A stretch of DNA of 64,000 nucleotides, taken from assembly GCA_049322655.1 (NCBI GenBank), contig JBMORP010000002.1:32923-96922 (forward strand), written 5' to 3'. Each line of letters begins with the position of its first letter. Position 1 is the stretch's first letter. This document shows, piece by piece, positions 3,636 through 53,718 of the stretch. The translations under genes were made by a program, and so were the position numbers. The notes beneath the pieces were generated by a model. That model made no database searches. It was not told where the DNA came from and was given only the letters and a program-made list of their open reading frames with translations. The stretch is from Patescibacteria group bacterium (GTDB lineage: Bacteria > Patescibacteriota > Microgenomatia > UBA1400 > PJMF01).

Positions 3636-4889
3636 ATGCGTCAATTTAATAAACGCTCATCTTCTAGTTTTAGTAACCACAATGGTGGAAGCTATGGTCG
3701 TCGTTCTCAAAATGGCAACAGAGGTTTCTCTGGTGGTTTCGGTGGCAGAGGTAATAATAGAAGAAGTGGAATGAAACAATCCATCTTTGATCCTAGTTCA
3801 GTAATTGCTAAATCAAAAACTACTAACTACAAACCACAAACAGAAGAAACCTATGAAGCTACCAACCAATTTAGTGATTTTAAAATCGTTGATGAGTTAA
3901 AAAATAACATTAGTTTCAAAAAATATACTACTCCAACTCCAATTCAAGATCAGGTTATCCCTCATATTTTAGAAGGAAAAGACGTAGTGGGTATTGCTAA
4001 TACTGGTACCGGTAAAACTGCTGCTTTTTTGATTCCGTTATTAAACAAAGTTGTCATGAATCCTACAGAAAAAGTGTTAATTATTGTCCCGACCAGAGAG
4101 TTAGCTGTTCAAGTCAGAGACGAATTAGCATCTTTTTCCTATAAACTTAATATTTATTCCACCCTGTGTATTGGTGGTTCCAATATTAATAGTCAAATTA
4201 ACTCCCTAAAAAGAGGTCAACACTTTGTGATTGGCACTCCAGGTAGATTAAAAGATCTTAATCAAAAAAGAAAAATTAGATTTGAAGAATTTAACAATAT
4301 TGTTTTGGATGAGGTCGATAGAATGCTTGATATGGGCTTTGTCAAAGAAGTTAAACTGATTATTGAATCGTTAGCAGAAAACAGACAATCACTGTTTTTT
4401 TCTGCCACCATGTCAACCAGAGTAGAAGAAATTATGCGAGGATTTTTAACAGATCCTGTTCATATCTCTATTAAAACTAAACAAAATTCTGGCAACATTG
4501 AACAAAAAATCGTCAAAATTCAGGGTAGATCTAAATTAGAAATGCTTCACGAATTTTTAATCAATGAATCTTATGAAAAAGTCTTGGTTTTTGGCCGAAC
4601 CAAGAGGGGAGCCGAGAAACTCTCTAGGGACCTACAAAGAAAAGGTCTCAAGGTCAATGCTATTCATGGTAATAAATCACAAGGTCAAAGACAAAAAGCT
4701 TTACAACAGTTTAGAGCCAACCAATTACAAGCCTTAATTGCTACTGATGTAGTCGCTCGTGGATTGGATATTGATAATGTTACTCATGTGATTAATTACG
4801 ACTTGCCAGGTACTTACGAGGACTATATCCATCGTATCGGTCGTACTGGTAGAGCCAACAAAAAAGGCATTGCTTTAACGTTTATTTAA
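3636..4889 (+). CDS. DEAD-box ATP-dependent RNA helicase with N-terminal Gly/Arg-rich (RGG-like) region
   Basis: Q-motif 'TPTPIQDQVIP', Walker A 'NTGTGKTAAF', 'DEVDRML', 'SAT', 'HRIGRTGR'. The first ~45 aa are G/R/N/S-rich. Confidence 0.9.
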   Translation: MRQFNKRSSSSFSNHNGGSYGRRSQNGNRGFSGGFGGRGNNRRSGMKQSIFDPSSVIAKSKTTNYKPQTEETYEATNQFSDFKIVDELKNNISFKKYTTPTPIQDQVIPHILEGKDVVGIANTGTGKTAAFLIPLLNKVVMNPTEKVLIIVPTRELAVQVRDELASFSYKLNIYSTLCIGGSNINSQINSLKRGQHFVIGTPGRLKDLNQKRKIRFEEFNNIVLDEVDRMLDMGFVKEVKLIIESLAENRQSLFFSATMSTRVEEIMRGFLTDPVHISIKTKQNSGNIEQKIVKIQGRSKLEMLHEFLINESYEKVLVFGRTKRGAEKLSRDLQRKGLKVNAIHGNKSQGQRQKALQQFRANQLQALIATDVVARGLDIDNVTHVINYDLPGTYEDYIHRIGRTGRANKKGIALTFI

Positions 4890-9451: not shown

Positions 9452-9522
9452 GATGTGTATCACACTATGCAGACTTTTTAGCAAAACTTCAAGGTTGGAC
9501 TATCCAAGAATATTACAAGACT

Positions 9523-9549
9523 TTAGCAGTCACTTCATTTTATTGCTAA
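9523..9549. promoter_or_regulatory. CIRCE-like inverted repeat TTAGCAGTC-N9-TATTGCTAA (left end of repeat copy A)
   Basis: Same TTAGCA-N15-TGCTAA architecture as the sites upstream of clpB and lon and at 30451. Confidence 0.5.
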
Positions 9550-9685
9550 TTAGCTTTTCTTGAGAAAAAAATTGATATATCAATCTTGTTTTATGATATG
9601 TTTTGATATTGTTTGATAACTATAAATATATTTGTCAGATTAATATGAGACACTTACCCTCGGGGTGAAAGGGGGTGGAGTGAAA
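9523..9685. repeat. ~160-nt composite repeat element, copy A (CIRCE-like palindrome, then TTGATATATCAA, then an AT-rich core, then a GC-rich hairpin end)
   Basis: Aligns along its length with the reverse complement of 30324-30477. Shared blocks are 'ttagcagtcactt', 'attgatatatcaat' and 'tgagacacttaccc.cgggg..aaagggg.tgg'. Confidence 0.7.
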
Positions 9686-9735
9686 AACCTTAATTGAAGA
9701 AGTCAGCTTGCAGTTTAAAACCTAGGGATGATACT

Positions 9736-10443
9736 ATGCCCAATATGAAAAAACAAAGCTTACTTTTAGTGGTTCTGGCCTTTTTATTGGTCGGAGTAGT
9801 TGCCCTAATTATTGAAAAAAACAATAATAAAAATACCACTTCGCTGGAAGAACAGGTTCTGACTTTTCCCAGCAAAAGCCCAACTGTAGTACCAAGTATT
9901 AAACCAATCACAAAGGAATCAATGAAAAAACAATATGATAATCCTCCTGCTATGCAACTTGATAGCACCAAAAAATATCAAGCAACAATGACTACTTCAG
10001 AGGGAGTAATTGTCATTGAGCTTTATGCCGATCAAACCCCTCAAACAGTCAATAACTTTGTTTTTTTGGCTAACGATAAGTTTTATGATGAAACTATCTT
10101 TCACCGAGTGATTAATGGTTTCATGATCCAAGGTGGTGACCCAGAGGGGACAGGAATGGGTGGCCCAGGTTACCGTTTTGCCGATGAAAAATTTACAGGT
10201 GAATACACTCGTGGCACGATCGCCATGGCTAATGCTGGACCAAATACCAATGGCAGTCAATTCTTTATTATGCATCAAGACTATCCATTGCCACCCAACT
10301 ATGTAATTTTTGGTAAAGTGATAAATGGTTTAGAAGTGGTTGATAAAATTGCCACTGCACCAGTCTCAATGAGTTTATCCGGTGAAAAATCTCAACCAGT
10401 TAAACCAGTAACCATCAAGTCCATCACCATTAGTGAAAACTAA
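9736..10443 (+). CDS. ppiB: cyclophilin-type peptidyl-prolyl cis-trans isomerase, membrane-anchored or secreted
   Basis: 'HRVINGFMIQGGDPEGTGMGGPGYRFADE' and 'NGSQFFI'. N-terminal hydrophobic segment. Start placed at MPNMKKQ behind RBS 'taggga'. Confidence 0.85.
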   Translation: MPNMKKQSLLLVVLAFLLVGVVALIIEKNNNKNTTSLEEQVLTFPSKSPTVVPSIKPITKESMKKQYDNPPAMQLDSTKKYQATMTTSEGVIVIELYADQTPQTVNNFVFLANDKFYDETIFHRVINGFMIQGGDPEGTGMGGPGYRFADEKFTGEYTRGTIAMANAGPNTNGSQFFIMHQDYPLPPNYVIFGKVINGLEVVDKIATAPVSMSLSGEKSQPVKPVTIKSITISEN

Positions 10444-27284: not shown

Positions 27285-27344
27285 AGTTTGTAAGTTAGAC
27301 AGTCGAAAAATTCCCGAATACAGGCTATAATGGAGTTTCTTTTT

Positions 27345-30323
27345 ATGAAGAAAAATTCATTAGATCATATTATTATTTCTGGTGCTAGGGAACATAATCT
27401 TAAAAATGTTTCTTTTGCTATTCCCAAAAATAAACTAGTTATTTTTACTGGTCTTTCTGGCAGCGGTAAAACCTCTTTAGCTTTTGATACTTTGTATGCT
27501 GAAGGACAACGACGCTATGTTGAGTCTCTGAGTTCTTATGCTAGGCAATTTTTGGGCATTATGCAAAAACCTCAGGTTGACCAAATTGAAGGTTTATCGC
27601 CAGCTATTTCCATTGATCAGAAGACGACTTCCCATAATCCTCGCTCTACCGTTGGTACTATTACCGAGATTTATGATTATCTCAGGCTACTATTTGCCAG
27701 AGTAGGCCACCCACACTGTCACCAATGTGGTCTAGAAATTAGCACCCAAAGTATTGACCAAATTATCAAACAAATTATTGACTTAGTTGAAAAAAAAGCA
27801 GCTAATCAACCAACTAGACTCATGATTCTTTCACCAGTTGTTCAGGCTAGAAAAGGTGAGTTTGCTGCCTTATTTACTAACCTACAAAAACAAGGCTTTA
27901 CCAGAGTCAGAATTGACGGTGAAGTCTTTGACCTGTCAGAGAATATTACTTTATTAAAAAACAATAAACATACGATTGAAGCAGTTGTTGATCGGATCAG
28001 TTTTTCTAAAAAACAATTGAATGATCACCAAGAACTAAAAACTCTCAAATCTAGACTTTCACAAACCATTGAAGAATCATTAAAACTATCAACTGGTTTG
28101 GTAATAGCCAGTTTTATTGACGACAATTCTTTATCATTTCCAGAAAAACCCAAACAGATGGAAGATCACTTATTCAGTGAAAAACTCGCCTGTAGTGATT
28201 GTGGTATTTCTTTAAAAGAACTTGAACCAAGAATGTTTTCTTTTAATTCTCCAGAAGGAGCCTGTGAAACTTGTAATGGCATTGGTTCATTACTCAGAAT
28301 TAACCCAGAAAAAATCATTGCTCCCAGCTTAACGCTGAGCGAAGGTGCCATTATTCCGTTTGCTAGAACTATGAGCAATGACACTTGGTGGTCAAGATTA
28401 GTGAAGGTAGTGGTCGAAACAGCCGGCTATGACTTCAGAAAAACTCCTTATGAAGAATTTAGTGATGAATTTAAACAAAGCTTGCTTCATGGTTCCAAAG
28501 AAATCTACAACGTGACTGGCGAAAATCGATTTGGTAAAGAAACCATGATTCAAGAGAGATTTGAGGGTTTCATTACTAATTTGGAAAGAAGGTATCAAGA
28601 AACTGACAGTGATTACATCCGTAAAGAAATTGAAGAATTCATGCACAAAGAGACTTGTCCTGCTTGTCAGGGCAACAGGTTAAAACCAGAATCTTTGGCT
28701 GTAACAATTGATCACAAAAATATTGCCGATACAACCAACTTAACTATTCAACGAGTTTTGGACTGGTGTAAATCTTTGACCGCAAGTAAAAAACTATCTA
28801 CCAAAGAAACTGAAATCAGTGGCTCGATTTTAAAAGAAATTATCACCAGATTAAGCTTCTTATCTTCTGTTGGACTTAATTATTTGTCACTTGGTAGAGA
28901 AGCTTCTACTTTGGCTGGTGGTGAGGCCCAAAGAATCAGATTGGCTTCGCAAATTGGAACTGGTCTAACTGGAGTGCTGTATATTTTAGATGAACCAACT
29001 ATTGGATTACACCCCAGAGATAATGATCGGTTAGTCGATACTTTAAAAAACCTAAGAGACCAAGGTAACAGCGTGATTGTAGTTGAACATGATCGTGATG
29101 TGATGTTATCTGCTGACTATATTTTTGATTTCGGTCCTGGAGCTGGTAAACATGGTGGAGAAGTTGTTGCTGAGGGAACACCTGAAGAACTAATGGCAGC
29201 CAAAAAATCTGTAACTGGCAAATACCTCTCCCGTAAAAAAGATGTCATTAGACCCAAGAGGGCTGAAGAAAGAAAAGTGATTGGTCTAGATGATATGCCA
29301 GTTATCAGAGGAGCTAATGGTTCGATTCAACTGCGAGGAGCATCTCATCACAACCTAAAAAACATTGATGTCGAGTTTCCACTCAATTCCTTAACTTGTA
29401 TTACTGGTATTTCTGGTTCAGGAAAATCTACTTTACTTCATGACACTCTTTACTATCAATTAATGAAACACCTAGAAAGAAAAATCGATGAAAAAGCTGG
29501 TCATGTTGAACAAGTAATGGTGCCTGATACTGTTAAACGCTTAACTTTAATTGATCAAAGTCCAATTGGTAAAACCCCCCGCTCTAATCCTGCTACTTAT
29601 ACTAAGATCTTTGACTATATTAGAAAACTTTTTGCCAATACCCAGGAAGCTCACATTCGCGGTTACAATCCAGGTAGATTTAGTTTTAATGTTAAAGGCG
29701 GCCGCTGTGAAACTTGCCAGGGGGATGGCCAAATCAAAATCGAGATGCAGTTCTTACCTGATGTTTATGTCACTTGCGATGTCTGTCATGGTCAACGCTA
29801 TAATGAAGAAACTCTCCAAGTAATTTATAAAGGCAAAAATATTTCTGAAATCTTAAAAATGAGTGTTGAAGATGCTTTGGAATTCTTTAAAAGTAATGGA
29901 ACCTTGAAACAAAAACTCCAAACTTTAATTGATGTTGGCTTGGGCTACTTAGAACTTGGCCAACCAGCTCCAACCTTGAGTGGTGGAGAATCTCAAAGGG
30001 TTAAGCTAGCCCGTGAACTAAGTTTAAAAACTAATGATCATGTGGTTTACCTATTAGATGAACCAACTACTGGGTTGCATTTTGCTGATGTGCAAAAACT
30101 ATTAAATGTTTTACATAAATTGGTTGCTCAAAACAATACCGTGATTTTGATTGAACACAATCTGGATGTCATTAAGAATGCTGATTGGTTAATTGATCTT
30201 GGTCCTGAGGGTGGAGAATATGGCGGTGAAATCATTGCCATCGGAACACCACAACAAGTAGCTAAAAATAAAAACTCATTTACTGGTAAATATTTGGCTG
30301 AAGAATTTAAAAACCAACACTAA
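27345..30323 (+). CDS. uvrA: excinuclease ABC subunit A (UvrA)
   Basis: 'IIISGAREHNLKN'. Two ABC cassettes ('GLSGSGKTSLAFD', 'GISGSGKSTLL'). Zinc-finger Cys pairs. 'LSGGEAQRIRLA' and 'LSGGESQRVKLA'. Confidence 0.9.
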   Translation: MKKNSLDHIIISGAREHNLKNVSFAIPKNKLVIFTGLSGSGKTSLAFDTLYAEGQRRYVESLSSYARQFLGIMQKPQVDQIEGLSPAISIDQKTTSHNPRSTVGTITEIYDYLRLLFARVGHPHCHQCGLEISTQSIDQIIKQIIDLVEKKAANQPTRLMILSPVVQARKGEFAALFTNLQKQGFTRVRIDGEVFDLSENITLLKNNKHTIEAVVDRISFSKKQLNDHQELKTLKSRLSQTIEESLKLSTGLVIASFIDDNSLSFPEKPKQMEDHLFSEKLACSDCGISLKELEPRMFSFNSPEGACETCNGIGSLLRINPEKIIAPSLTLSEGAIIPFARTMSNDTWWSRLVKVVVETAGYDFRKTPYEEFSDEFKQSLLHGSKEIYNVTGENRFGKETMIQERFEGFITNLERRYQETDSDYIRKEIEEFMHKETCPACQGNRLKPESLAVTIDHKNIADTTNLTIQRVLDWCKSLTASKKLSTKETEISGSILKEIITRLSFLSSVGLNYLSLGREASTLAGGEAQRIRLASQIGTGLTGVLYILDEPTIGLHPRDNDRLVDTLKNLRDQGNSVIVVEHDRDVMLSADYIFDFGPGAGKHGGEVVAEGTPEELMAAKKSVTGKYLSRKKDVIRPKRAEERKVIGLDDMPVIRGANGSIQLRGASHHNLKNIDVEFPLNSLTCITGISGSGKSTLLHDTLYYQLMKHLERKIDEKAGHVEQVMVPDTVKRLTLIDQSPIGKTPRSNPATYTKIFDYIRKLFANTQEAHIRGYNPGRFSFNVKGGRCETCQGDGQIKIEMQFLPDVYVTCDVCHGQRYNEETLQVIYKGKNISEILKMSVEDALEFFKSNGTLKQKLQTLIDVGLGYLELGQPAPTLSGGESQRVKLARELSLKTNDHVVYLLDEPTTGLHFADVQKLLNVLHKLVAQNNTVILIEHNLDVIKNADWLIDLGPEGGEYGGEIIAIGTPQQVAKNKNSFTGKYLAEEFKNQH

Positions 30324-30477
30324 CCACACCCCTTTACCCCCGTGGGTAAGTGTCTCACAGCTGGCTGACAACAAACTTAATATATAAAACAATATCTAAA
30401 TCTATCAAAAATAAAATTGATATATCAATGTTTTACTCGAGAAGATAATATTAGCAGTCACTTTTAATATCTGCTAA
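30324..30477. repeat. ~155-nt composite repeat element, copy B (inverted relative to copy A)
   Basis: GC-rich hairpin end 'cacccctttacccccgtgggtaagtgtctca', then 'attgatatatcaat', then TTAGCAGTC-N9-ATCTGCTAA. The final motif overlaps the last codons and stop of coaDE. Confidence 0.7.
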
Positions 30478-31575
30478 AAACTGTTTTAAGTCTTGAATGA
30501 CTTTTTGGTCGTTACTTTCAATCACCCACAACTGACCTTGTCCATCACGCTTAATTATTTTTGCTAGTTCTTGTTTCTTTTTAGAGAAATCATATTGACT
30601 GGCTAGGCGAGTCTTAATTTGTTCAACAGTTAAATCACGAGCTTCCAATCGTTGTCGCTGAATTTTTTCATCTGCTTTGACTAAAATTACATTATTATTT
30701 GATAAATAAGCCATATCAGACTCAGCAATTAAAGCTGCATTGAGTAAAATCAAACCTTTTTTGCCATAAAGTTCTCGTCTTAGCCTCACCAAAATCGGCG
30801 TATACATAATTTTATTCAGAGCGGCTAATTTCTCTTCGTCGTGAAATACAATCTCTCCCAATATTTTACGATTAATTGTGCCGGCTGGGTTTTTTATTTT
30901 TTCGCCAAATTCTTTAGTTAGCTGTTGACGAACTTTAGCGTAGCCAGTTTCAGTTAGCCTCTCATAGATATCATGAGCTAAGTGATCTAACTCTATGTGG
31001 TGAACTTCCAAGCCCTGTTCTTTTCCCAGTTCAACTAGTTTTTGACAAACAAAAGACTTACCCACCCCAATCTCACCCGTCACACTAACAATCATTTGCT
31101 CTGACATTTTTTTCTCCAACTTACTTTTCACCAACATTGGCACATATTCATGAATTAAACCCTGTTCTTTTTGGATTGCTTTCACTGAACTGGAACTAAT
31201 GTGAGCCAACTTCGGATCAGCAAATAATAATACGGTTTCCATGCCTAATTTTTGACTTTCACCCAATTGATTGAGGTAACGCTCATATTCAAAGTCTTTG
31301 GTGTCTCTCATTCCCTTAACAATTACTTCTGCACCTTGTTCATAAGCAAAATCAACTAATAGTCCAGTAAATGAAACTACCTTAACATTTTTTAAATGAC
31401 GAAGAGAATGACTAGCCATTTCGGTTCTAGCTTCAAGAGAAAACATGTATTTTTTATCAGGATTTACTCCAATGGCAACAATAACCTGATCAAAAACCTT
31501 GGCTGTTCGTTGAACAACATCAATATGACCATAAGTAATCGGATCACCAGAGAAAGCATAAATAGCTTTAGACAT
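30451..31575 (-). CDS. coaDE: bifunctional phosphopantetheine adenylyltransferase / dephospho-CoA kinase (CoaD-CoaE fusion)
   Basis: N-terminal 'AIYAFSGDPITYGHIDVVQRT' (CoaD HxGH-type). C-terminal 'VSVTGEIGVGKSFV' P-loop (CoaE). Confidence 0.75.
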   Translation of the reverse strand: MSKAIYAFSGDPITYGHIDVVQRTAKVFDQVIVAIGVNPDKKYMFSLEARTEMASHSLRHLKNVKVVSFTGLLVDFAYEQGAEVIVKGMRDTKDFEYERYLNQLGESQKLGMETVLLFADPKLAHISSSSVKAIQKEQGLIHEYVPMLVKSKLEKKMSEQMIVSVTGEIGVGKSFVCQKLVELGKEQGLEVHHIELDHLAHDIYERLTETGYAKVRQQLTKEFGEKIKNPAGTINRKILGEIVFHDEEKLAALNKIMYTPILVRLRRELYGKKGLILLNAALIAESDMAYLSNNNVILVKADEKIQRQRLEARDLTVEQIKTRLASQYDFSKKKQELAKIIKRDGQGQLWVIESNDQKVIQDLKQFLADIKSDC

Positions 31576-36681: not shown

Positions 36682-36730
36682 ATTTATCCTTAATCTATTA
36701 ATTAATAGTGATCATACTTTTTCAAAAAAA

Positions 36731-36746
36731 TGTAATTTATCTTACA
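36731..36746. promoter_or_regulatory. CRP/FNR-family-like palindrome TGTAA-N6-TTACA upstream of pflB
   Basis: Perfect 5-6-5 inverted repeat, ~50-65 nt upstream of the pflB start. Confidence 0.4.
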
Positions 36747-36796
36747 TTTTTAAAAAGAAAATTATACAACAAATCTTTAGAGAAAAAAATTAAAAT

Positions 36797-37200: not shown

Positions 37201-39084
37201 ATGGAAACAATGAAAAAGCTTTTTTTCAGCTTGCTAGCTAGTTTATTGGTACCTATTTATTTATTGGTAGCTACTGAAACCAGAGCTCAACAAACAGAGA
37301 TTAATGCCTTTGAAAACAAACTAATCAGTACCTATACCGTTAATGAGCTAGGTAATACTTATGTCGAACATACCTTTTCCATCAAAAATCTGACTCCGAC
37401 TTATTACATTACTAAGCATGGCTTAAAAACCAGCTCACCCAACATTACTAATATTAGAGTCTTTGATCAACAAGGCAATAATTTTAATGCTGAGATCACT
37501 AAAGTTGAAAACCAAACTAATATTGGTATTACCTTCCCAGATAAGTTGGTCGGAGAGGGAAAAGTTAGAACTTTTACTATCAGTTATAACAACCCCGACT
37601 TGGCTCAAGTTAATGGCAATGTTTTGGAGATAGCCATTCCCAAACAAGCCGATTCCAATCAATATCAACAAGCAGAAGTAGTGCTCAACACCCCGCTCAG
37701 GTTTGGCAATGCTACTAGAGTAACTCCCGCTTCAAATTTTACTCAAAAACTAACCGATAAAGGCATCCAAATGACTTTCAGTGAGCTGAAAAATCAAGGT
37801 GTGTCAGCCCTATTTGGTATCGACCAGATTTTTGATTTAAACTTCACTTATTTCTTGGAAAACAACGATTCTCAACCAATTTTGCTCCAAACTGCATTAC
37901 CACCAGATACTTCTTTTCAAAGAATGCACTATCACTCTATTGACCCTCTCCCAACTGAAATGGAAATAGATCAAGATGGTAACTGGATTGCTACTTTCTA
38001 TATGCCTGGTAATACCGCTCAAACTGTCAAAGTTCAGGCTCAAGCCCTTTTAACTTTGAACAAAAATCCTGATATTCCAGTTTCTTATCCCCAAAGCTTT
38101 CACTTATCCAGACAACCATTTTGGGAAATTGATAATAAAAATCTGCAACAAATTGCCGAAGAAAATAAAACTCCACAAGCAATTTATAACTATGTGACTA
38201 CCACTTTAGAGTACCAAACAATTGATTCGCTAGAAGACTTTGAAAGAAAAGGTGCTGCCCAAATCATAGGGCAACCAACCACTGCTGCCTGTCAAGAATT
38301 TTCTGATTTATTTGTCACCATAGCTAGAATTAATAACATCCCCGCTAGAGTTGTTACCGGTTATGCTTATACCCAGAATAACAGCCTACGTCCCTTGAGT
38401 TTAGTTGAAGATATCTTGCATGCTTGGCCAGAATATTGGGACGAAACAAACCAAGTTTGGCAACCAACTGATCCTACCTGGGGCAATACAACTGGAGGAG
38501 TGGATTACTTTAACCAATTTGATCTGAACCACATCGTCTTAGCCATCAATGGTCAATCAAGTACTTTGCCTTATCCAGCTGGCTCATATAAAACAGAACA
38601 ACAACAGACTGAAAAAACACTTGAAGTCCTTTTTGGCAAAAACTTTCCAAGCCAAAAACCAGAGTTAACAGCTGATTTAACCAAAAGTGAGAATAACTGG
38701 TTAAAAATGCCAGGATTTTACCAACTAACTTTAGTGAATAATTCTGGAGCTGCTTGGTATAAGCTAACTTTTGATCTTAGCTCTAATAAATCTGGAGTTA
38801 GGGTGTTTGGTGATACCTCAATACCAGCAATTTTACCGTTCCAAACTATCTCTATTCCAATCTTTGTTTATAATACACAACAAGCCTTACCAGAAAAAGA
38901 CAATTTAGTGTTAAATGTCTCAATGAATGGTGGCTCGATTTTACAAAAAGACTTCACTGTTACTAATGCGCCAAACTTCATCCAAAACTTTGCCCACCCA
39001 TACATCCCATTTTTCTTGGGCGGAACAGCGATCATCCTGGCCCTCGGCACCGGGAGTGTACTCGTTTTTAGACGAAAAAAATAA
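37201..39084 (+). CDS. secreted transglutaminase-like cysteine protease domain protein with C-terminal membrane anchor
   Basis: Signal peptide. Transglutaminase core 'TAACQEFSDLFVTIARINNIPARVVTGYAY' with downstream 'HAWPEYWD'. C-terminal TM 'FFLGGTAIILALGTGSVLVFRRKK'. Confidence 0.7.
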   Translation: METMKKLFFSLLASLLVPIYLLVATETRAQQTEINAFENKLISTYTVNELGNTYVEHTFSIKNLTPTYYITKHGLKTSSPNITNIRVFDQQGNNFNAEITKVENQTNIGITFPDKLVGEGKVRTFTISYNNPDLAQVNGNVLEIAIPKQADSNQYQQAEVVLNTPLRFGNATRVTPASNFTQKLTDKGIQMTFSELKNQGVSALFGIDQIFDLNFTYFLENNDSQPILLQTALPPDTSFQRMHYHSIDPLPTEMEIDQDGNWIATFYMPGNTAQTVKVQAQALLTLNKNPDIPVSYPQSFHLSRQPFWEIDNKNLQQIAEENKTPQAIYNYVTTTLEYQTIDSLEDFERKGAAQIIGQPTTAACQEFSDLFVTIARINNIPARVVTGYAYTQNNSLRPLSLVEDILHAWPEYWDETNQVWQPTDPTWGNTTGGVDYFNQFDLNHIVLAINGQSSTLPYPAGSYKTEQQQTEKTLEVLFGKNFPSQKPELTADLTKSENNWLKMPGFYQLTLVNNSGAAWYKLTFDLSSNKSGVRVFGDTSIPAILPFQTISIPIFVYNTQQALPEKDNLVLNVSMNGGSILQKDFTVTNAPNFIQNFAHPYIPFFLGGTAIILALGTGSVLVFRRKK

Positions 39085-40324
39085 TATTCTCTATGTTGGC
39101 AAGGCAAAAAATCTAGCTAATCGTCTTACTAGTTATACACACTATGCCCAGTTGGCTCCCAGAATTAAGAGCTTAGTTAGTACTGCCAAAAAACTTACTT
39201 TTGAAGTTTTGGACAGTGAACTAGAGGCTTTACTAATCGAAGCAGAATTAATTAGAGTTCACCAACCATTTTTTAATATTAGATTAAAAGATGATAAATC
39301 ACCAATTTATTTAATTATCACCAATGATTCTTATCCAACAATTCTAAAAAAAAGAAAAAATGATTTAAATAAAATCACAATCAATGGTCAGTTGTTTGGG
39401 CCATTTCAAAGTAGTTATAAACTAAACGAAGTACTGAAAATTGCTCGCAAAATCTTCCCTTGGTGTAATCAACCACTGCAAACAATAAATAAAAAACCAA
39501 CTAAAGCTTGTTTTTACTACCACTTGGACCAATGCCCAGGGGCTTGTTTAGGCCTGATTTCTCCACAAGACTATCAAGAGAACATTACCAATCTTAAGCT
39601 CTTTTTAAAAGGAAAAAAGAAGCAAGTGATGACAAACTTAAAAAAAAGAATGACTTTCTTTGCTGAAAAGCAACAGTACGAACAAGCCCAAAAAATTAAA
39701 CTTCAACTGCAATATATTGAAGAAGTTACTCAAAAAACTTACCAACTAAAACCAGATTTGGTCTTACCAGGACTTGGAGCAACCAAAACTGAAATTGGTT
39801 TGGTTGAACTCCAAAAAATTCTCACCACTTACACTCATTGGCCCAAAAATAAAAAACTCAATCGAATTGAAGGTTATGATGTAAGTAATATTCAAGGAAA
39901 AAATGCAGCTGTTTCAATGGTAGTTACAAAAAATGGCCAACCGACCAATAGTTCATACAAAATCTTCAATATTAAGTCTTTAGATACTCCGAATGACTAC
40001 AAAATGATGCAAGAGGCTCTACTTAGAAGACAAAACCATCCTGAATGGGAGACACCTGATTTAGTGGTAGTTGATGGGGGCAAAGGCCAAGTGAGAGCGG
40101 CTTTAACAATTTGGCAATGGGACTGCCCAGTGATTGGTATTGCCAAAAACCCAGATCGCTTAGTAATTCCTTTACCAGCTGGCAGTAATGAAAAATATAA
40201 ATTAGTCAGACTAGAGGCTAATCATCCAGCTCTAAATCTAATTCAACAATTGAGAAATGAAGCTCACCGTTTTGCCAAGAAACAATGGGGCAAGAGGCAT
40301 ACCAAGGCAATGTTGAATAACTAG
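38966..40324 (+). CDS. uvrC: excinuclease ABC subunit C (UvrC)
   Basis: GIY-YIG 'PGVYSFLDEKNNILYVGKAKNLANRL'. The start is uncertain: 38927 or 38966 ATG, or a GTG at 39056. Any of these overlaps the preceding gene by 30-160 nt. Confidence 0.8.
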   Translation: MRQTSSKTLPTHTSHFSWAEQRSSWPSAPGVYSFLDEKNNILYVGKAKNLANRLTSYTHYAQLAPRIKSLVSTAKKLTFEVLDSELEALLIEAELIRVHQPFFNIRLKDDKSPIYLIITNDSYPTILKKRKNDLNKITINGQLFGPFQSSYKLNEVLKIARKIFPWCNQPLQTINKKPTKACFYYHLDQCPGACLGLISPQDYQENITNLKLFLKGKKKQVMTNLKKRMTFFAEKQQYEQAQKIKLQLQYIEEVTQKTYQLKPDLVLPGLGATKTEIGLVELQKILTTYTHWPKNKKLNRIEGYDVSNIQGKNAAVSMVVTKNGQPTNSSYKIFNIKSLDTPNDYKMMQEALLRRQNHPEWETPDLVVVDGGKGQVRAALTIWQWDCPVIGIAKNPDRLVIPLPAGSNEKYKLVRLEANHPALNLIQQLRNEAHRFAKKQWGKRHTKAMLNN

Positions 40325-40328
40325 CCTA

Positions 40329-40709
40329 ATGCTAGTAGAATTTTTCTTACAAATGCTTAGACTTTTTCTCAATACTGGAATTACTTTTTGGATTCTATCT
40401 TACTTCGTGCCAACTATCCGCTTTGCCAACTGGACCGCCTTAATCATTGCCAGCTTAGTGATGGTGTTTATCCAAAAAATAATTAAACCTATAGTTAAAT
40501 TGCTATTTTTACCAATTAATGTCGTTACTTTAGGCTTGTTTTCTATTGTCATTAATGTTGCAATGTTGTGGTTAGTAACCTATCTAGTTCCAGGCTTTGA
40601 AATTACCAATATGGTCGTGTTTGGCTTACATTTAGATCGGTTTGGTTCGATTCTTTTTGCATCTATTTTGATTGGTTTTGTTCAAGGTTTTGTAACTTTG
40701 GTTATTTAG
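40329..40709 (+). CDS. DUF360 / phage-holin-4-like small membrane protein (YvlD-like)
   Basis: 'KPIVKLLFLPINVVTLGLFSIVINVAMLWLVTYLVPGFEI' closely resembles the YvlD family core. Confidence 0.55.
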   Translation: MLVEFFLQMLRLFLNTGITFWILSYFVPTIRFANWTALIIASLVMVFIQKIIKPIVKLLFLPINVVTLGLFSIVINVAMLWLVTYLVPGFEITNMVVFGLHLDRFGSILFASILIGFVQGFVTLVI

Positions 40710-40739
40710 CTAAAAACTCAGCCTGTTATAATATTTTCC

Positions 40740-41672
40740 ATGAAAAAGATTGTTTTGTTCGTTTTATCGATTGGTTGGTGGTTATTAACCACCACTACTA
40801 CTATCCAAGCTCTAAATCTTGATCCACTTGGAGAAGTAACTGAAGCCTCTAGTCCGATCGAAGCCAGTGAGGCTGGTAAATTAGCCTCTTCTTCAGCGGA
40901 AGTCGACCAAAAAATACAAGAAAAAAAAGATCAAGATATTACTGAAACTGGTGGTAAACAAAAAAGCAAACTAGCTGCTTACTTGGATGAACATCCAATT
41001 GGACCTTTATCTTGGCATAACCCTTTGCAACACGCCATTCGGCAAGCTATTACTAATGGTTTACCAGCTAACATTATCGTCTTATTGATGCTCTTCCCAT
41101 TAATTGCTTCCATCATCGCTTTTGGTCGCCATATTGTTGGACTGAAAGGCTTTGGTGTTTATATTCCAGCGGTGTTATCAGTGGCTTTTGTTTCTACAGG
41201 AATTGTAATTGGAGTATTAATCTTCTTTGCTGTCCTAATAGCCGCAACATTAGCCAGAAAAGTAGTCAAGAGATTAAAACTACCATTATTACCAAGAACA
41301 GCCATGTTGCTGTGGGTGGTGACTTTTCTAGTTTTGATTTTACTAATCATTTCATCCTTGGTTAACATCTCGGCTTTACTTAGCATTAGTATTTTCCCAC
41401 TGTTAATTATTATGTTGTTAACTGAAAACTTTATGAGCACTCAACTCTTTAATAGTCAAAAAGAAGCTCTTAGTATTACTTTTGAAACTTTATTGGTTGC
41501 TATTTTATGTGCACTCCTAATCAATCTAGAAAGTATTCAACAATTTGTTTTAATTTATCCAGAATTAAGCTTATTAGCGGTAGCTGGTTTAAATATGTTG
41601 ATTGGAAAATATACTGGTCTAAGACTTCTGGAAAGAGTTAGATTCGAATCAATCATTGAAGAAGAGGAGTAA
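40740..41672 (+). CDS. polytopic (about 7 TM) membrane protein, partner of the ATP-grasp/DUF1704 pair
   Basis: Signal and soluble N-terminus, then at least 6-7 hydrophobic helices. Gene order matches the conserved 7TM / RimK-related ligase / QEGLA trio. Confidence 0.5.
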   Translation: MKKIVLFVLSIGWWLLTTTTTIQALNLDPLGEVTEASSPIEASEAGKLASSSAEVDQKIQEKKDQDITETGGKQKSKLAAYLDEHPIGPLSWHNPLQHAIRQAITNGLPANIIVLLMLFPLIASIIAFGRHIVGLKGFGVYIPAVLSVAFVSTGIVIGVLIFFAVLIAATLARKVVKRLKLPLLPRTAMLLWVVTFLVLILLIISSLVNISALLSISIFPLLIIMLLTENFMSTQLFNSQKEALSITFETLLVAILCALLINLESIQQFVLIYPELSLLAVAGLNMLIGKYTGLRLLERVRFESIIEEEE

Positions 41673-41674
41673 TC

Positions 41675-42955
41675 ATGGTCCAAACTAGAGATGTTCTGGG
41701 CATGAACGCCCGCAATCAACTCTTCGTTCCCCTTAACTCAAAAAAGGCTAGATCTTTTTGTATTTCTAAATATGCCACTAAACTGCTTTTACAAAGTCAT
41801 AATATTCCCACTGCTCAGGTTTATGGGATTTTGGGAACCTCTGAAGATGTCGATGAATTTAATTGGCAAGACCTCAAAAAAGATTTTGTGATTAAACCAA
41901 CTAATGGCCATGCAGGCAAAGGAGTAGTAGCCTTTAGAAGCCAGCATGCAGATGGTGAGCATTGGACTGATGCGGTTGGCACAACCTGGAGCTTACAAGA
42001 TATTAAGCTTCATTGCACCGATATTTTATCTGGTGAATACAGTACCCACGGTTCTAATCACAATATTATTGTTGAAGAAAGAGTTCCTATTCACAGCAAG
42101 CTCTTAAAATATACCTATAAGGGGACTCCAGACATTAGAGTCGTTGTCTTTAACAGCGTTCCAGTCATGGCCTTGTTGCGGCTACCCACTGAAGAATCGG
42201 GAGGAAGAGCCAATCAAAGCCAAGGAGCTTTGGGCGTTGGCGTTGATGTTGCCACTGGCATTACTACTTATGCAGCGGCTCATAAAAACCAGTTAATTAA
42301 ATACATGCCAGATACTAAAGTTAAACTAAACGGCATTAGAATTCCTTTTTGGAATGAAGTTTTACTTACAGCAGTCAGTGCAGCCAGAGCTGCCGGCCTC
42401 ACTTTCACTGGTGTTGATATGTTTATTCACCAAGAAAAAGGACCAATGGTGGTCGAACTAAACGCCTACCCAGGTCTATCTATTCAAGTAGCTAACAAAG
42501 CTGGCTTAAGAAGGAGATTGGAGCGGGTTCAAGATCTAAATGTCTTAAGTGCTGAACATGGCGTCAGAATTGCCAAAGCTTTATTTGCTGAAAACTTCGC
42601 CAGTAAAATTAAAGAAGAAGGAGAGTTCCCAATCTTAGCCACAGAAGAAACCATTGTTATTTATGGTGATAATAAACAAAAAACCGAAACAAAAGCTTTA
42701 ATTAACACTGGTAGATTTAGATCAGTAATTGCTAGTAAACTAGCTGAAGAACTAGGGCTGATTGACGTTGAAGACTTACTTTGGTTTCAACAAATTTCTG
42801 GTGAAGGTAAGAGACCGGTAGTCGAAATTAAATTTAAATTGAAAAATAAAACAATTACTACCTCAGCTGTTGTTTCTAAAAAATTAAATAAAAATAAACA
42901 AAAAATAGAGCTTGGCCGTAACGACTTGGTTGGCTTTGTTATTAGGCCTTCATAA
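41675..42955 (+). CDS. RimK-related ATP-grasp alpha-L-glutamate-ligase-like protein
   Basis: ATP-grasp elements 'FVIKPTNGHAGKGV', 'IVEERVP', 'VVELNAYPG'. The C-terminal ~100 aa form an extra domain. Confidence 0.6.
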   Translation: MVQTRDVLGMNARNQLFVPLNSKKARSFCISKYATKLLLQSHNIPTAQVYGILGTSEDVDEFNWQDLKKDFVIKPTNGHAGKGVVAFRSQHADGEHWTDAVGTTWSLQDIKLHCTDILSGEYSTHGSNHNIIVEERVPIHSKLLKYTYKGTPDIRVVVFNSVPVMALLRLPTEESGGRANQSQGALGVGVDVATGITTYAAAHKNQLIKYMPDTKVKLNGIRIPFWNEVLLTAVSAARAAGLTFTGVDMFIHQEKGPMVVELNAYPGLSIQVANKAGLRRRLERVQDLNVLSAEHGVRIAKALFAENFASKIKEEGEFPILATEETIVIYGDNKQKTETKALINTGRFRSVIASKLAEELGLIDVEDLLWFQQISGEGKRPVVEIKFKLKNKTITTSAVVSKKLNKNKQKIELGRNDLVGFVIRPS

Positions 42956-42960
42956 AAATC

Positions 42961-43920
42961 ATGGGACTCATTGCAGATTTAAAACCACTCAATTTTCTAG
43001 AAGAAAAAAACAAGTTCTTAGCTGAGCCAAATTTTAATCCTCAATTCATTTACTCACGCATTTTTTCGCCGAAAGAACTAACTACTCACGGCTTACCAAA
43101 TCATCAATATATAAACTTGGCTGAAAAAATTCTGGAAAAAACTTTCCATGAGTTTACTAACCATGAACTAACTCAATTTAAAGGACAACTTTTAAGTCAG
43201 GAAACTGTCACAAATCAAATTACTGAGTTTCTCAAAAAGCATCAAATTGAAAATAAATATAAAATTGTTTGGGCCGAAGATTTTGTCAGTCGAACGGCTA
43301 TTAATGCTGACACGATTAAATTAAGACTTCCTTGCTCTGTTTATGAAGATGATTTGGCAGGACTGATTTATCACGAACTTGGCACTCATGCTCTTAGAAG
43401 AGTCAATTATGAACAACAACCATGGTTCAAAAAAAAGAAAAAATGTGGCTTTACTGATTACTTAAAAACCGAAGAAGGATTGGCTGTTTTACATGCCTTA
43501 TATCCCAGAAAACAACCTTTAGCTTATATGGCGGCAATTAATTTTTTAGCGGTGATCAAAGCTCAAGAAGAATCATTTTTAGAAGTGTGGCAATTCATTA
43601 ATCACTATCTAGAAGATGATGAAAAATCATTTAACATCGCTTTCAAAAAGAAACGAGGTTTGGTTGATACTAGCCAACCAGGTGGCTTCACCAAGGATTA
43701 TGTTTATTTTGAGGGGTTCGTTGAAACAGTCAGGTTTTTGCTTGAAAATGACTTACCAATCAAAGAACTTTATTTTGGCAAACTAGCTTATCAGGACATC
43801 GATAAGGCTGTGACTATGAATAAAAACTTTAAGCCATTATTACCAGCTTTTTATACAATCAACCCAAATGAATACAAAAACAAAGTGATTGCTATCGCCA
43901 AAACTAATTTCTTAGTTTAA
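42961..43920 (+). CDS. DUF1704 / QEGLA-motif protein (MATCAP-like putative metallo-carboxypeptidase)
   Basis: 'EEGLAV' (QEGLA-like) and 'YHELGTHAL' (HExxxH). Confidence 0.55.
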   Translation: MGLIADLKPLNFLEEKNKFLAEPNFNPQFIYSRIFSPKELTTHGLPNHQYINLAEKILEKTFHEFTNHELTQFKGQLLSQETVTNQITEFLKKHQIENKYKIVWAEDFVSRTAINADTIKLRLPCSVYEDDLAGLIYHELGTHALRRVNYEQQPWFKKKKKCGFTDYLKTEEGLAVLHALYPRKQPLAYMAAINFLAVIKAQEESFLEVWQFINHYLEDDEKSFNIAFKKKRGLVDTSQPGGFTKDYVYFEGFVETVRFLLENDLPIKELYFGKLAYQDIDKAVTMNKNFKPLLPAFYTINPNEYKNKVIAIAKTNFLV

Positions 43921-46132: not shown

Positions 46133-47667
<1,535 letters not shown>

Positions 47668-47840: not shown

Positions 47841-48174
47841 TGAAAATTAGTACATTAATTAATAATATTCTTTAGATTCATAATCTCGTCGATAAAATAA
47901 TTAGAGTGTAGAAAACTATCTAACAAATCTCCTCAGATTCACTTTTTAAAATTTTTGTTAATAAATATAATTACTATCTAAAAACCAACAATTACTTATA
48001 GGTTTTTAGCAGACAATATATTTAACTGCTAATTTGAAACAATAAAAATAAACAACCATTCATCAATCCTTTTTCATTGATATTTTAAGATATCTTTTGA
48101 TTTGTTTTTATATATTTTGTTAGATAAAATGACTAGTTTAATCACAGCAGGCAATTTCCACCTTGAATCTCTTT

Positions 48175-48201
48175 TTAGCAATGATATATAATGATTGCTA
48201 A
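48175..48201. promoter_or_regulatory. CIRCE-like operator TTAGCAATG-N9-GATTGCTAA upstream of clpB
   Basis: Same length and spacing as the HrcA CIRCE element (TTAGCACTC-N9-GAGTGCTAA). A -10-like TATAAT sits inside it. Lies 34 nt before the clpB ATG. Confidence 0.5.
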
Positions 48202-48234: not shown

Positions 48235-50802
48235 ATGAATTTAAATCGTTTTACTACTAAATCTGCTGAAGCTATTCAGGGCACCATGCAGTTAGCTGGC
48301 AAATTAAAACATCCTGCCATGCAACCTTTGCACCTTTTCTTAGTTCTAGTAGAACAACCTAATGGATTAATTCCATCTTTACTCCAAAAACTAGAACAGG
48401 ATTTGGCTGCTTTAAAATTAAAAATTAAAGATAAACTCTCAACTCTTCCTACAACTGATACAACTACTCAAGCCTATGTTTCACCAGAGCTCCAACAAGT
48501 CTTGGCTAAAGCAGAAACAGAAGCAGGCAAACTCCGAGATGAATACATTAGTACTGAACACTTATTTTTAGGTTTACTAGATAACCAAGAAATCAAACAG
48601 TTAATTGACTTAGACAAAAAAGCTGTCTTGGAAACATTGAAAAAAATTAGAGGCAACCAAAAAGTAACTGATCCAGATCCAGAAGGTAAATACCAAGCCT
48701 TAGAAAAATATACTCAAGACTTTACTGAGCTGGCCAAACAAGGAAAAATCGATCCAGTCATTGGTCGAGATGAGGAGATCCGACGTATTACCCAAATTCT
48801 TTCTAGAAGAACTAAAAACAACCCAGTGCTAGTCGGAGAACCGGGTACTGGTAAAACAGCGATTGTTGAAGGTCTAGCCAAAAAAATCGTTGACCATGAT
48901 GTACCAGATGTATTAAAAAACAAAAAAATCCTCAATCTGGATATGGGAGCGTTAATTGCTGGCGCCAAATATCGTGGTGAGTTTGAAGATCGCCTCAAAG
49001 CTGTCATTAAGGATATTGAAGCCGCTGATGGTGAAATCATTTTATTTATTGATGAACTTCATACTATTGTTGGTGCAGGCGCTCAAGAAGGCTCAACTGA
49101 TGCTGGTAACTTACTCAAACCAGCTCTTGCTCGTGGCAAACTCAGAACTATTGGGGCAACTACTTTAAAAGAATATCGAAAATACATCGAAAAAGATGCT
49201 GCTTTGGAGCGCCGTTTTCAACCAGTCATAGTGGAAGAACCTTCAGTAGATGATTCACTTTCGATTTTACGAGGTATTAAAGAAAAATATGAAACTCACC
49301 ACGGTGTCAAAATCCGTGACAACGCTTTAGTTGCTGCCGTCAAACTTTCTCATCGTTATATCGCTGATAGATTCTTACCAGATAAAGCCATTGACCTCAT
49401 GGATGAGGCTGCCTCAGCCATTAGAATCGAGATTGAAAGCAAACCAACCATCATTGATGCTTTGGAAAGAAAAATTCGCCAACTAGAAATCGAAAAAGCT
49501 GCTTTAACCAAAGAAAAAGATGATCAAAGTAAAGAGCGACTCAAAGAAATAGAAAAAGAAATTGCTGAACTAACCGAGAAACACAAGCAATTAGAACTTC
49601 ATTGGCAAGCAGAAAAAAATACTATTGATAAAATCAAAAAATCCAGCAAACAAATCGATGAACTCAAAGAACAAGCCATTCAAGCTGAGCGTAATTACGA
49701 TTTACAAAAAGTGGCAGAAATCAACTATGGCAAAATTCCAGAGTTAGAAACTGCAATAAAAACAGCTAAAGCAGAATTGAAAAAGATTCAAACTAATCAA
49801 AAAATCCTCAAAGAAGAAGTTACTCAAGAGGATATTGCCCGAGTTGTAGCCCGCTGGACCGGTATTCCAGTCGAAAAAATGCTCGCTGAAGAGGGCGATA
49901 AATTAACCAAACTCGAAGATGAAATTGCTGAGCGAGTTGTTGGTCAAAGAAAGGCCATTGTTGCCGTAGCTAATGCTATTCGTCGCAATCGAGCTGGCAT
50001 AGGTGAGGAAGGGAAACCAATCGGTTCTTTCATCTTCATGGGACCAACTGGCGTAGGTAAAACAGAGCTAGCCAAAACTTTGGCTGAAGTACTGTTTGAT
50101 GATGAAAAAATGATGATCAGAATCGATATGAGTGAATACATGGAAAAACATTCTGTGGCCAGATTAATTGGTTCACCTCCCGGTTATGTTGGCTATGAAG
50201 AGGGTGGACAATTGACTGAAGCAGTTAGACGCAGACCATACTCGGTCATTTTATTTGATGAAATAGAAAAAGCCCACCATGATGTTTTTAATACCTTGCT
50301 TCAAGTTTTAGATGATGGCAGATTAACCGATAGTAAAGGCAGAACAGTTGATTTTAAAAACACCGTGATTATTATGACCTCAAATCTGGGCAGTGAACTA
50401 ATTGCCGACTTTAAAGACGAGCCAATTAAACAAGAACAAGAAGTTCATAAATTACTTAAACAACAATTCAGACCAGAATTCTTGAATCGAATTGATGATA
50501 TTATTATTTTCCAACCACTAGCTGAAAAAGAAATCACCAACATTGTTGATCTTCAAGTTTCAGAATTGAAAAAAAGGCTTAAAGAAAATAAAAATATTGA
50601 GCTCATTGTTTCAGCTAAAGCGATTAAATATTTTGCAAGTGCTGGTTATGACTCAATCTTTGGTGCTAGACCACTGAAAAGACTAATTCAAAAAGAGCTC
50701 TTAGATCCGCTCTCTTTAGAAATTATTCAGGGACAAATTAAAGAAGGTGACAAAATAAAAGCTGAGTTTGATGGTCGAAAAATTACTTTTAAATCAAGCT
50801 AA
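48235..50802 (+). CDS. clpB: ATP-dependent chaperone ClpB
   Basis: Two AAA+ modules ('GEPGTGKTA', 'GPTGVGKTE') separated by a long coiled-coil middle domain. 855 aa. Confidence 0.9.
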
Positions 50803-50855: not shown

Positions 50856-50929
50856 GGGTGTGTAGCTCAGGTGGTTAGAGCGCTGTCCTGATAAGACAGA
50901 GGTCCCATGTTCGAGTCATGGCACACCCA
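50856..50929 (+). tRNA. tRNA-Ile (anticodon GAT)
   Basis: GGGTGTG…CTGTC-CTGATAA-GACAG…CACACCC-A. Confidence 0.75.
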
Positions 50930-50988
50930 CTTTTTTATTTCCTGATAAAATTATTGTTGTTGCTTGACTAGATAGCGCATTGGCCAAA

Positions 50989-53691: not shown

Positions 53692-53718
53692 TTAGCAGAC
53701 AAAAATATAGAATGCTAA
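53692..53718. promoter_or_regulatory. CIRCE-like operator TTAGCAGAC-N9-GAATGCTAA upstream of lon
   Basis: Same TTAGCA-N15-TGCTAA architecture. Lies 22 nt before the lon ATG. Confidence 0.5.

Follow-up and report, generated by a model that had tools for sequence, protein, structure and literature searches.

Here we report that copy B, the repeat copy located between the convergent genes uvrA and coaDE in a 64,000-nucleotide stretch of DNA from a Patescibacteria group bacterium (the window), is probably a conserved and functional paralogue of a heat-shock promoter module of the HrcA/CIRCE type, not a mobile repeat. This assignment comes from comparing sequences within the window and across related genomes. 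The host is AT-rich (36% G+C) and a member of the candidate phyla radiation (CPR). The anatomy of copy B, its paralogy with other copies, its conservation and its overlap with coaDE can be read directly from the DNA and are described before the proposed mechanism.

The gene uvrA (27330-30323, plus strand) ends with a TAA at 30321-30323 and converges with coaDE (30451-31575, minus strand), which encodes a fusion of pantetheine-phosphate adenylyltransferase and dephospho-CoA kinase of 374 amino acids. Pfam domains back both assignments, for UvrA in an identical Logan contig and for CoaDE (CTP_transf_like and CoaE) in an identical public contig. According to the first-pass annotation, copy B begins immediately after the uvrA stop codon, and we observed that its G+C-rich core (30324-30371, minus strand) does abut this stop; the C terminus of UvrA is unaltered by the element. 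The opposite end of copy B lies within coaDE. Read on the minus strand from 30477 to 30451, the 3' end of coaDE is TTA GCA GAT ATT AAA AGT GAC TGC TAA, and the product terminates in ...FLADIKSDC*. These 27 nt are at the same time a TTAGCA-N15-TGCTAA site and the last eight codons (LADIKSDC) plus the stop codon of coaDE, which bears out what the annotation had said of this CIRCE-like end. The coaDE-terminal 27 bases are exactly TTAGCAGTC-N9-ATCTGCTAA; as an operator on the minus strand (30451-30477), the site reads TTAGCAGAT-ATTAAAAGT-GACTGCTAA.

Copy B had been described as inverted relative to copy A (9521-9680), and its minus strand indeed aligns with the plus strand of copy A, with 106 matches in 130 ungapped columns. 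The local alignment score is 109, compared with 19 +/- 3 (maximum 35) in 1000 shuffles, so that the likeness of the two copies is far above chance. Within the window, a G+C-rich 20-mer, TGAGACACTTACCCNCGGGG, is confined to these two copies. Copy A is flanked by the divergent mutS-mutL (minus strand) and the cyclophilin gene ppiB (plus strand). Its CIRCE-like operator (9523-9549, plus strand), between mutS and ppiB, is followed on the same strand (9550-9680) by a CTTGAGA box, a palindrome (9571-9584), the hexamers TTGATA-18-TATATT (9603-9632) and a core with the hairpins H1 (9633-9652) and H2 (9654-9668). A 13-mer, TTAGCAGTCACTT, is identical on the plus strand at 9523 and 30451, an identity that had been attributed to a functional palindromic site. 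We confirm the identity, and the CIRCE-like end is a real palindromic site of the operator type, with 9 of the 13 bases constituting a half-site. The explanation does not extend to the other four bases (ACTT), which are conserved in no orthologous copy and are thus shared by coincidence.

The window contains five exact TTAGCA-N15-TGCTAA sites, against an expectation of 0.42 even with one mismatch allowed. Besides those of copies A and B, they comprise a pair preceding clpB (48006 and 48175) and a single site preceding lon (53692); the identities of ClpB and Lon are backed by Pfam. The proximal clpB site (48175-48201, plus strand) encloses the -10 box TATAAT of TTGAAT-18-TATAAT (48163-48192), and the lon site (53692-53718, plus strand), 23 nt upstream of the ATG, encloses the -10-like TAGAAT of the predicted promoter TTGTCT-17-TAGAAT. 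A repressor sitting on the core promoter is the classical geometry, and both of these sites fit it. The distal clpB site (48006-48032) belongs to a third, diverged copy of the module (48005-48103, plus strand, toward clpB), which also includes GATA boxes and TTTTTATATATT. The module profile (nhmmer, first ~100 nt) matches this upstream region in sense orientation over model positions 2-99 (E = 0.0026), and the window thus holds three paralogous module copies. With its unambiguous downstream gene, the clpB copy sets the predicted direction of the module, from the CIRCE-like site through the GATA boxes to the core. Among the three copies in the window, the 45-nt G+C-rich core is present in A and B only.

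Two of these loci have further features of their own. The gene clpB (48235-50802) and its two CIRCE-like sites are located between a 16S rRNA gene (46134-47667), after which there is no 23S gene in the window, and a gene for tRNA-Ile(GAT) (50856-50930), a tRNA usually located in the 16S-23S spacer. Upstream of ppiB (window 9700-9747, and likewise in the related loci L068, L070 and L072), TTGnnn-18-TACTAT lies 7 nt before the start ATGAAAAAA (window 9745), and a Shine-Dalgarno sequence is absent. This arrangement suggests that the ppiB mRNA is leaderless and independent of the repeat. Because ppiB has its own proximal promoter-like site, conserved in all four copy A loci, copy A may be a unit apart and not the ppiB promoter. 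In L068, upstream of the -35-like box of ppiB (3965-3985), TTAGCCTTGCTAA amounts to two CIRCE half-sites with almost no spacer; the window counterpart is GTCAGCTTGCAG.

An alignment of ten copies from six genomes (A2) gives the order of the module as CIRCE-like site, TTCTYGAGWAAAA box, palindrome ATTGATATATCAAT, phased GATA boxes, GTCAG and G+C-rich core. The operator consensus is TTAGCAGWC-N9-GWCTGCTAA and is followed by the box CTYGAGW. In copy B, the conserved box TTCTYGAGWAAAA is at 30431-30443 (minus strand, where it reads TTCTCGAGTAAAA) and corresponds to the near-invariant A2 columns 46-58. The palindrome ATTGATATATCAAT (30416-30429) is perfect over 14 nt and kept in 10 of 10 copies. 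The phased GATA boxes coincide with a sigma-70-like promoter sequence, TTGATA-18-TATATT (30379-30408, minus strand), which has 10/12 matches and points toward uvrA. Three GATA boxes are phased at 10-11 bp in A2, where the (W)TGATA ... TATAWT columns are conserved, and the hexamers of copies A and B are oriented alike. In copy A, the best hexamers lie ~10 nt away from the aligned position in the other copies. Promoter predictions in this 36% G+C DNA are weak, with counts not above those of shuffles for copies A and B. The CIRCE-like site of the module is positioned ~45-50 nt upstream of the nearest predicted -35 box in copy A, copy B and the distal clpB copy. The core of copy B comprises GTCAG, H1 (30351-30370), H2 (30334-30349; TTACCC-ACGG-GGGTAA on the minus strand) and the G-run AAAGGGGTGTGG, and it matches the core profile (HMM) with E = 3e-12. 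By eye, we considered and rejected an FNR/CRP-like site, TTGAT-N4-ATCAA, for which the spacing here is 2 and not 4, and a sigma-32-type -35/-10 pair, of which the CCCC box is absent.

On the forward strand of the element, the core can be written as H1, TGTC...GAC(A/G), and H2, TT(A/G/C)CCC-loop-GGG(T/C/G)RR. Across seven distinct copies, 94% of the hairpin cells are paired, compared with at most 64% when the partners are slid, and one hairpin pair occurs as A-U, G-C and C-G in these copies. On the opposite strand, the seven cells with a G.U wobble would turn into C.A mismatches, which favours the forward strand as the RNA strand. Covariation in the seven sequences consists of a single fully compensated pair, equalled in 26 of 500 shuffles, and single-sequence folds are not stabler than shuffles (z -1.3 to +0.9). 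A gathering-threshold Rfam scan of the window returned only 16S rRNA and tRNAs, and permissive Rfam scans of copies A and B gave only chance matches (E > 1). The core is missing from both copies of one genome (copy B in L062, copy A in L070) and is thus dispensable there.

Two other roles for the core were examined and rejected. A mini-ORF, (A/G)TG AGA CAC TTA CCC nnG GGG (MRHLPxG), begins in the core of every copy; its frame and stop vary among copies, and the changes track base-pairing and not codon degeneracy, which argues against a small peptide. In L072 the gene caller merely joined the mini-ORF to ppiB. A closing stem in which the GTCAG region would pair with the antisense of the final uvrA codons was also discarded: pairings exist in copy B of the window, L003 and L066, and their registers differ.

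Since coaDE is co-directional with the forward strand of the element, the wobble-supported hairpins would be located on a read-through RNA from coaDE, and in every copy B the core is succeeded by a U-rich tract, GGUUUUUAAAUU, whose antisense strand encodes the conserved residues EEFK of UvrA. It is therefore conceivable that the transcript of the coaDE operon ends in the conserved segment, whose boxes and two hairpins could act not as a promoter but as a terminator, as a 3'-UTR stabiliser or as the source of a 3'-UTR-derived sRNA, with the CIRCE-like site being incidental or a roadblock. We regard this as unlikely. Copy A has no upstream co-directional gene, mutS being divergent, yet it shows the same architecture; the clpB copy sits upstream of a gene; and L062 keeps the rest of the element without the hairpins. 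Moreover, our scan of copies A and B detected no intrinsic-terminator-like site on either strand, and we rejected an intrinsic terminator for uvrA or coaDE, the U-rich tract starting ~12 nt after the G-run.

MAGs that are labelled Woesebacteria, Pacebacteria or Patescibacteria, or that are mislabelled, supply the nearest CoaDE loci, and the CoaDE homologues form a graded identity series relative to the window. A full element is present in L002 (CoaDE 95% identical to that of the window), L066 (87%), L003 (81%) and L064/L065 (79%), the last two on contigs that end inside the core. In L062/L063 (81%) the CIRCE site and the promoter part are kept, GTCAG and the core are absent, and the CoaDE tail is FLADIK*. 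L067 (77%) has no element; its coaDE TAG and uvrA TAA overlap, its tail is ...FLKEF*, and its homology to the window breaks exactly between TTTTTA and GCAG. Between coaDE and uvrA, the outgroups L075 and L076 (66-68%) have a small gene, orf92/94, and the outgroup L077 (72%) has an HD-domain-like gene; all three have other CoaDE tails. The more distant L004-L015 (51-63%) have other downstream genes and unrelated tails.

Every inspectable orthologue with a LAD/LAE...C* end (L002, L003, L064 and L066) has the element. We searched the inspected orthologues for the opposite case, the same C-terminal peptide without a surrounding repeat, which the first-pass annotation had named as evidence against its proposal, and found none. 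Following its suggestion to compare coaDE C termini in relatives that lack the element, we observed that the tails differ, that the stop codons of L067 overlap and that the spacers of L075-L077 hold other genes. Both operator arms are conserved in the copies B of L003, L062, L064 and L066. The coaDE gene of L062 is three codons shorter at this end, which leaves the arm GACTGCTAA outside the coding sequence but intact; selection therefore acts on the DNA site and not on the peptide. The locus clearly illustrates how the same 27 bases can belong both to a regulatory palindrome and to the 3' end of a coding sequence, stop codon included, with selection acting on the DNA.

Further observations concern individual relatives. 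The product of orf92/94 (L075 3578-3856, L076 4175-4459) is a conserved protein of 92-94 amino acids with no Pfam match, and the spacer upstream of the gene in both loci contains a related ATTGATATAT box and no CIRCE-like site. The L064 and L065 sequences are independent Logan contigs from different samples that end at the same base of the core (L064 5257 and L065 3445; ...GGGGTAGAAGGG), as would be expected if the core were repeated near-identically elsewhere in that genome.

At fourfold sites of coaDE, identity between the window and L003, L064 and L066 is 37, 41 and 48%, respectively, and these sites are thus saturated. Over the same genomes, the identity of element B is 77-79%. The non-coding spacer of copy B is 79-86% identical in aligned columns, and a promoter spacer used as a control, that of the gene for pyruvate formate-lyase (PFL), is 83% identical. 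Conservation of copy B alongside saturated fourfold sites indicates purifying selection typical of a working regulatory region. The PFL upstream spacer (window 36682-36796, minus strand; L062 4787-4885) itself contains a conserved palindrome, TGTAAGATAAATTACA, next to TTGTATAAT, and an anaerobic or redox regulator probably uses it as its operator. Beside uvrC, the window encodes transglutaminase-core, holin-like, 7TM-transglutaminase and sugar-transfer-associated ATP-grasp proteins and a MATCAP-like (PF08014) carboxypeptidase homologue (37201-43920), a cluster that could be a peptide-modification cassette.

These data bear on whether copy B might be a functionless relic, either a promoter left behind by a small gene since lost from between coaDE and uvrA (comparable to orf92/94 or the HD-domain gene of the outgroups) or a copy A duplicate that evolves neutrally. 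Such an origin would account for the absence of a gene downstream of copy B, for the loss of the core in L062 and the lack of any element in L067, and for the co-directional small gene with an upstream ATTGATATAT box in the outgroup spacers. It is nevertheless rather improbable in our view, given that copy B is 77-86% conserved where synonymous sites are saturated (37-48%), equalling a bona fide promoter spacer, and that both palindrome arms are kept even where they are non-coding. In tblastn searches, orf92 left no trace in the window or in any element-bearing locus, and we accordingly rejected copy B as a remnant of the outgroup gene orf92/94.

Copy B has orthologues in L002, L003, L062, L064 and L066, and orthologues of copy A are found upstream of ppiB in L068 (from the MAG of L003), L072 (from the sample of L066) and L070 (on the same contig as L062). 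The operator of copy A is present in L068 and L070 and decayed in L072. Identities are 69-81% among A copies (mean ~74%), 68-79% among B copies (mean ~76%, leaving out the window-L002 pair at 97%) and 64-75% between A and B copies (mean ~69%). Orthologous copies are thus mostly more alike than paralogous ones, and both copies must predate the split of these genomes. By these identities, the paralogy of A and B is old, and each copy has stayed at its own locus in four or more related Patescibacteria genomes. In the window, the core of copy A (9647-9674) carries the B-type GAGACACTTACCC...GGGGGTGG, unlike the copy A orthologues in L068 (3916-3956) and L072 (664-705), which have GAGATGCTT(G/C)CCC. 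This hints that gene conversion between A and B could have occurred in the lineage of the window.

The first-pass annotation had suggested that the element inserted into, or was recruited as, the 3' end of coaDE. The second alternative fits our comparisons, in which the CoaDE tail travels with the element and the tails of element-less relatives differ, and the end of coaDE may consist of recruited element DNA. That a repeat copy inserted recently is contradicted by the age of both paralogues and by the lack of terminal inverted repeats and of a clean target duplication. When the tail is excluded, a neighbour-joining tree of CoaDE places L067 with L062, on a very short branch, within the clade that bears the element, so that the empty site of L067 may be a secondary deletion.

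We consider it very unlikely that copies A and B represent a small non-autonomous mobile element, MITE-like or derived from IS200/IS605 with subterminal hairpins, that moved into the coaDE-uvrA and mutS-ppiB spacers. In favour of this idea, the two copies are oppositely oriented and have a palindrome close to one end and a hairpin close to the other, the site in L067 is apparently empty, and the contigs of L064 and L065 both break off within the core, as is usual for contigs at repeats. However, the ends of the element, TTAGCAG... and ...GGGGTGTGG, do not form terminal inverted repeats, and the empty site of L067 differs from filled sites beyond a clean insertion, with no clear target duplication. 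The copies are also old and locus-specific, with orthologues more alike than paralogues. A scan with the core 20-mer gave one chance match among metagenome contigs (the unrelated, G+C-rich L061) and none among viral contigs, and the core and module profiles detected no further copy in ~0.7 Mb of related loci. Finally, the same palindrome stands alone at the lon and clpB promoters.

A purely DNA-level role of the palindrome and GATA array, for example in binding a nucleoid, partition or replication protein, has an equally slight chance of being correct: the most invariant columns do resemble protein sites (two palindromes and three GATA boxes phased at 10-11 bp), but the sites are associated with the clpB and lon promoters, the forward-strand wobble pairs of the core argue for RNA, and GC skew has no turning point at the locus. 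A replication origin or terminus was rejected on the same grounds, as GC skew does not turn at copy A or at copy B.

Our preferred reading thus remains that copy B is a paralogous heat-shock promoter module. The three module copies of the window aim at clpB (third copy), at ppiB (copy A) and, in antisense, at the 3' end of uvrA (copy B), and copy B has no annotated gene downstream to drive. From the motifs and their arrangement, we infer which protein binds, where and in which direction transcription starts, and what is produced. At normal temperature, an HrcA-like repressor would occupy the palindrome, and upon stress the module would fire. Firing of copy B would generate a short structured RNA, probably with the two hairpins at its start, an antisense transcript over the last uvrA codons, or both. 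As for its origin, the module would have arrived next to coaDE, in the spacer where the outgroups have other small genes, and the distal half of its operator would have turned into the terminal codons and stop of coaDE. Selection on the DNA, and not on the peptide, would have maintained the site from then on.

It is possible, though in our estimation doubtful, that the module and the core together are a lineage-specific heat-shock (HrcA-type) sRNA gene in two paralogous copies, one of which makes an RNA with the two conserved hairpins at its start, antisense to the last uvrA codons, and has an operator half that doubles as the end of coaDE. If this were true, chaperone-type stress control would be coupled to nucleotide-excision repair via antisense RNA in a bacterium with a minimal genome. 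Copy A likewise abuts DNA-repair genes, mutS-mutL. To our knowledge, regulation in CPR bacteria is almost unstudied. The locus supplies the operator consensus given above and a conserved promoter architecture for a CPR heat-shock regulon, as well as a testable candidate for a stress-induced small or antisense RNA adjoining DNA-repair genes.

The CIRCE consensus bound by HrcA is TTAGCACTC-N9-GAGTGCTAA (PMC7464140). The sites described here share the 9-bp inverted arms and the 9-bp spacer of the CIRCE/HrcA system of Bacillus subtilis dnaK and groE; the geometry is exact, and TTAGCA/TGCTAA is invariant at all five sites. The best arms, TTAGCAGTC and GACTGCTAA, agree with the consensus at 8/9 positions. 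In copy B, the coding arm TTAGCAGAT agrees at 6/9 positions and the other arm at 8/9. Arm position 7 is G/C-swapped here by comparison to the consensus. As with CIRCE, the sites are found upstream of protein quality-control genes (clpB, lon and the cyclophilin gene), and the proximal clpB site and the lon site overlap the -10 box and the likely start region, similar to known HrcA-regulated promoters. By contrast, the module site is located well upstream of the predicted promoter and not over the core promoter as in the classical HrcA geometry, and one site is located between convergent genes, inside the 3' end of one of them. The targets also differ in being clpB, lon and ppiB, and not groESL or dnaK. 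We found no hrcA, groESL or dnaK in the window and no HrcA domain among the window ORFs scanned, and the regulator is thus proposed from its motif.

In Campylobacter and Helicobacter, heat-shock promoters under dual repression bind HspR at upstream HAIR sites and HrcA at the core promoter (PMC7464140). The module resembles these promoters in having several operator-like sites over ~100 bp, one of them far upstream of the core promoter, and its CTTGAGT box equals one HAIR half-site. It differs in that the CIRCE-like site is the distal one and that no hspR gene was seen. A complete HAIR/HspR operator, CTTGAGT-N7-ACTCAAG, was rejected, as only the left half, CTYGAGW, is present and the sequence at a distance of 7 bases downstream of it is TGATATA, not ACTCAAG. 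There is also a likeness to promoter-bearing intergenic repeats and to cis-antisense or 3'-end sRNAs, in that a non-coding repeat with a promoter-like site sits between two tail-to-tail genes and is aimed at the 3' end of one of them. Unlike promoter-bearing intergenic repeats, the module occurs in two or three old, locus-specific copies, with no dispersed family and no terminal repeats. In conclusion, this is no new kind of system; on comparison with known ones, we identify a CIRCE-like operator and a heat-shock promoter module in a little-studied phylum. What is unusual here is the overlap of the operator with eight codons and the stop codon of coaDE, and the conserved orphan position of the module between convergent genes.
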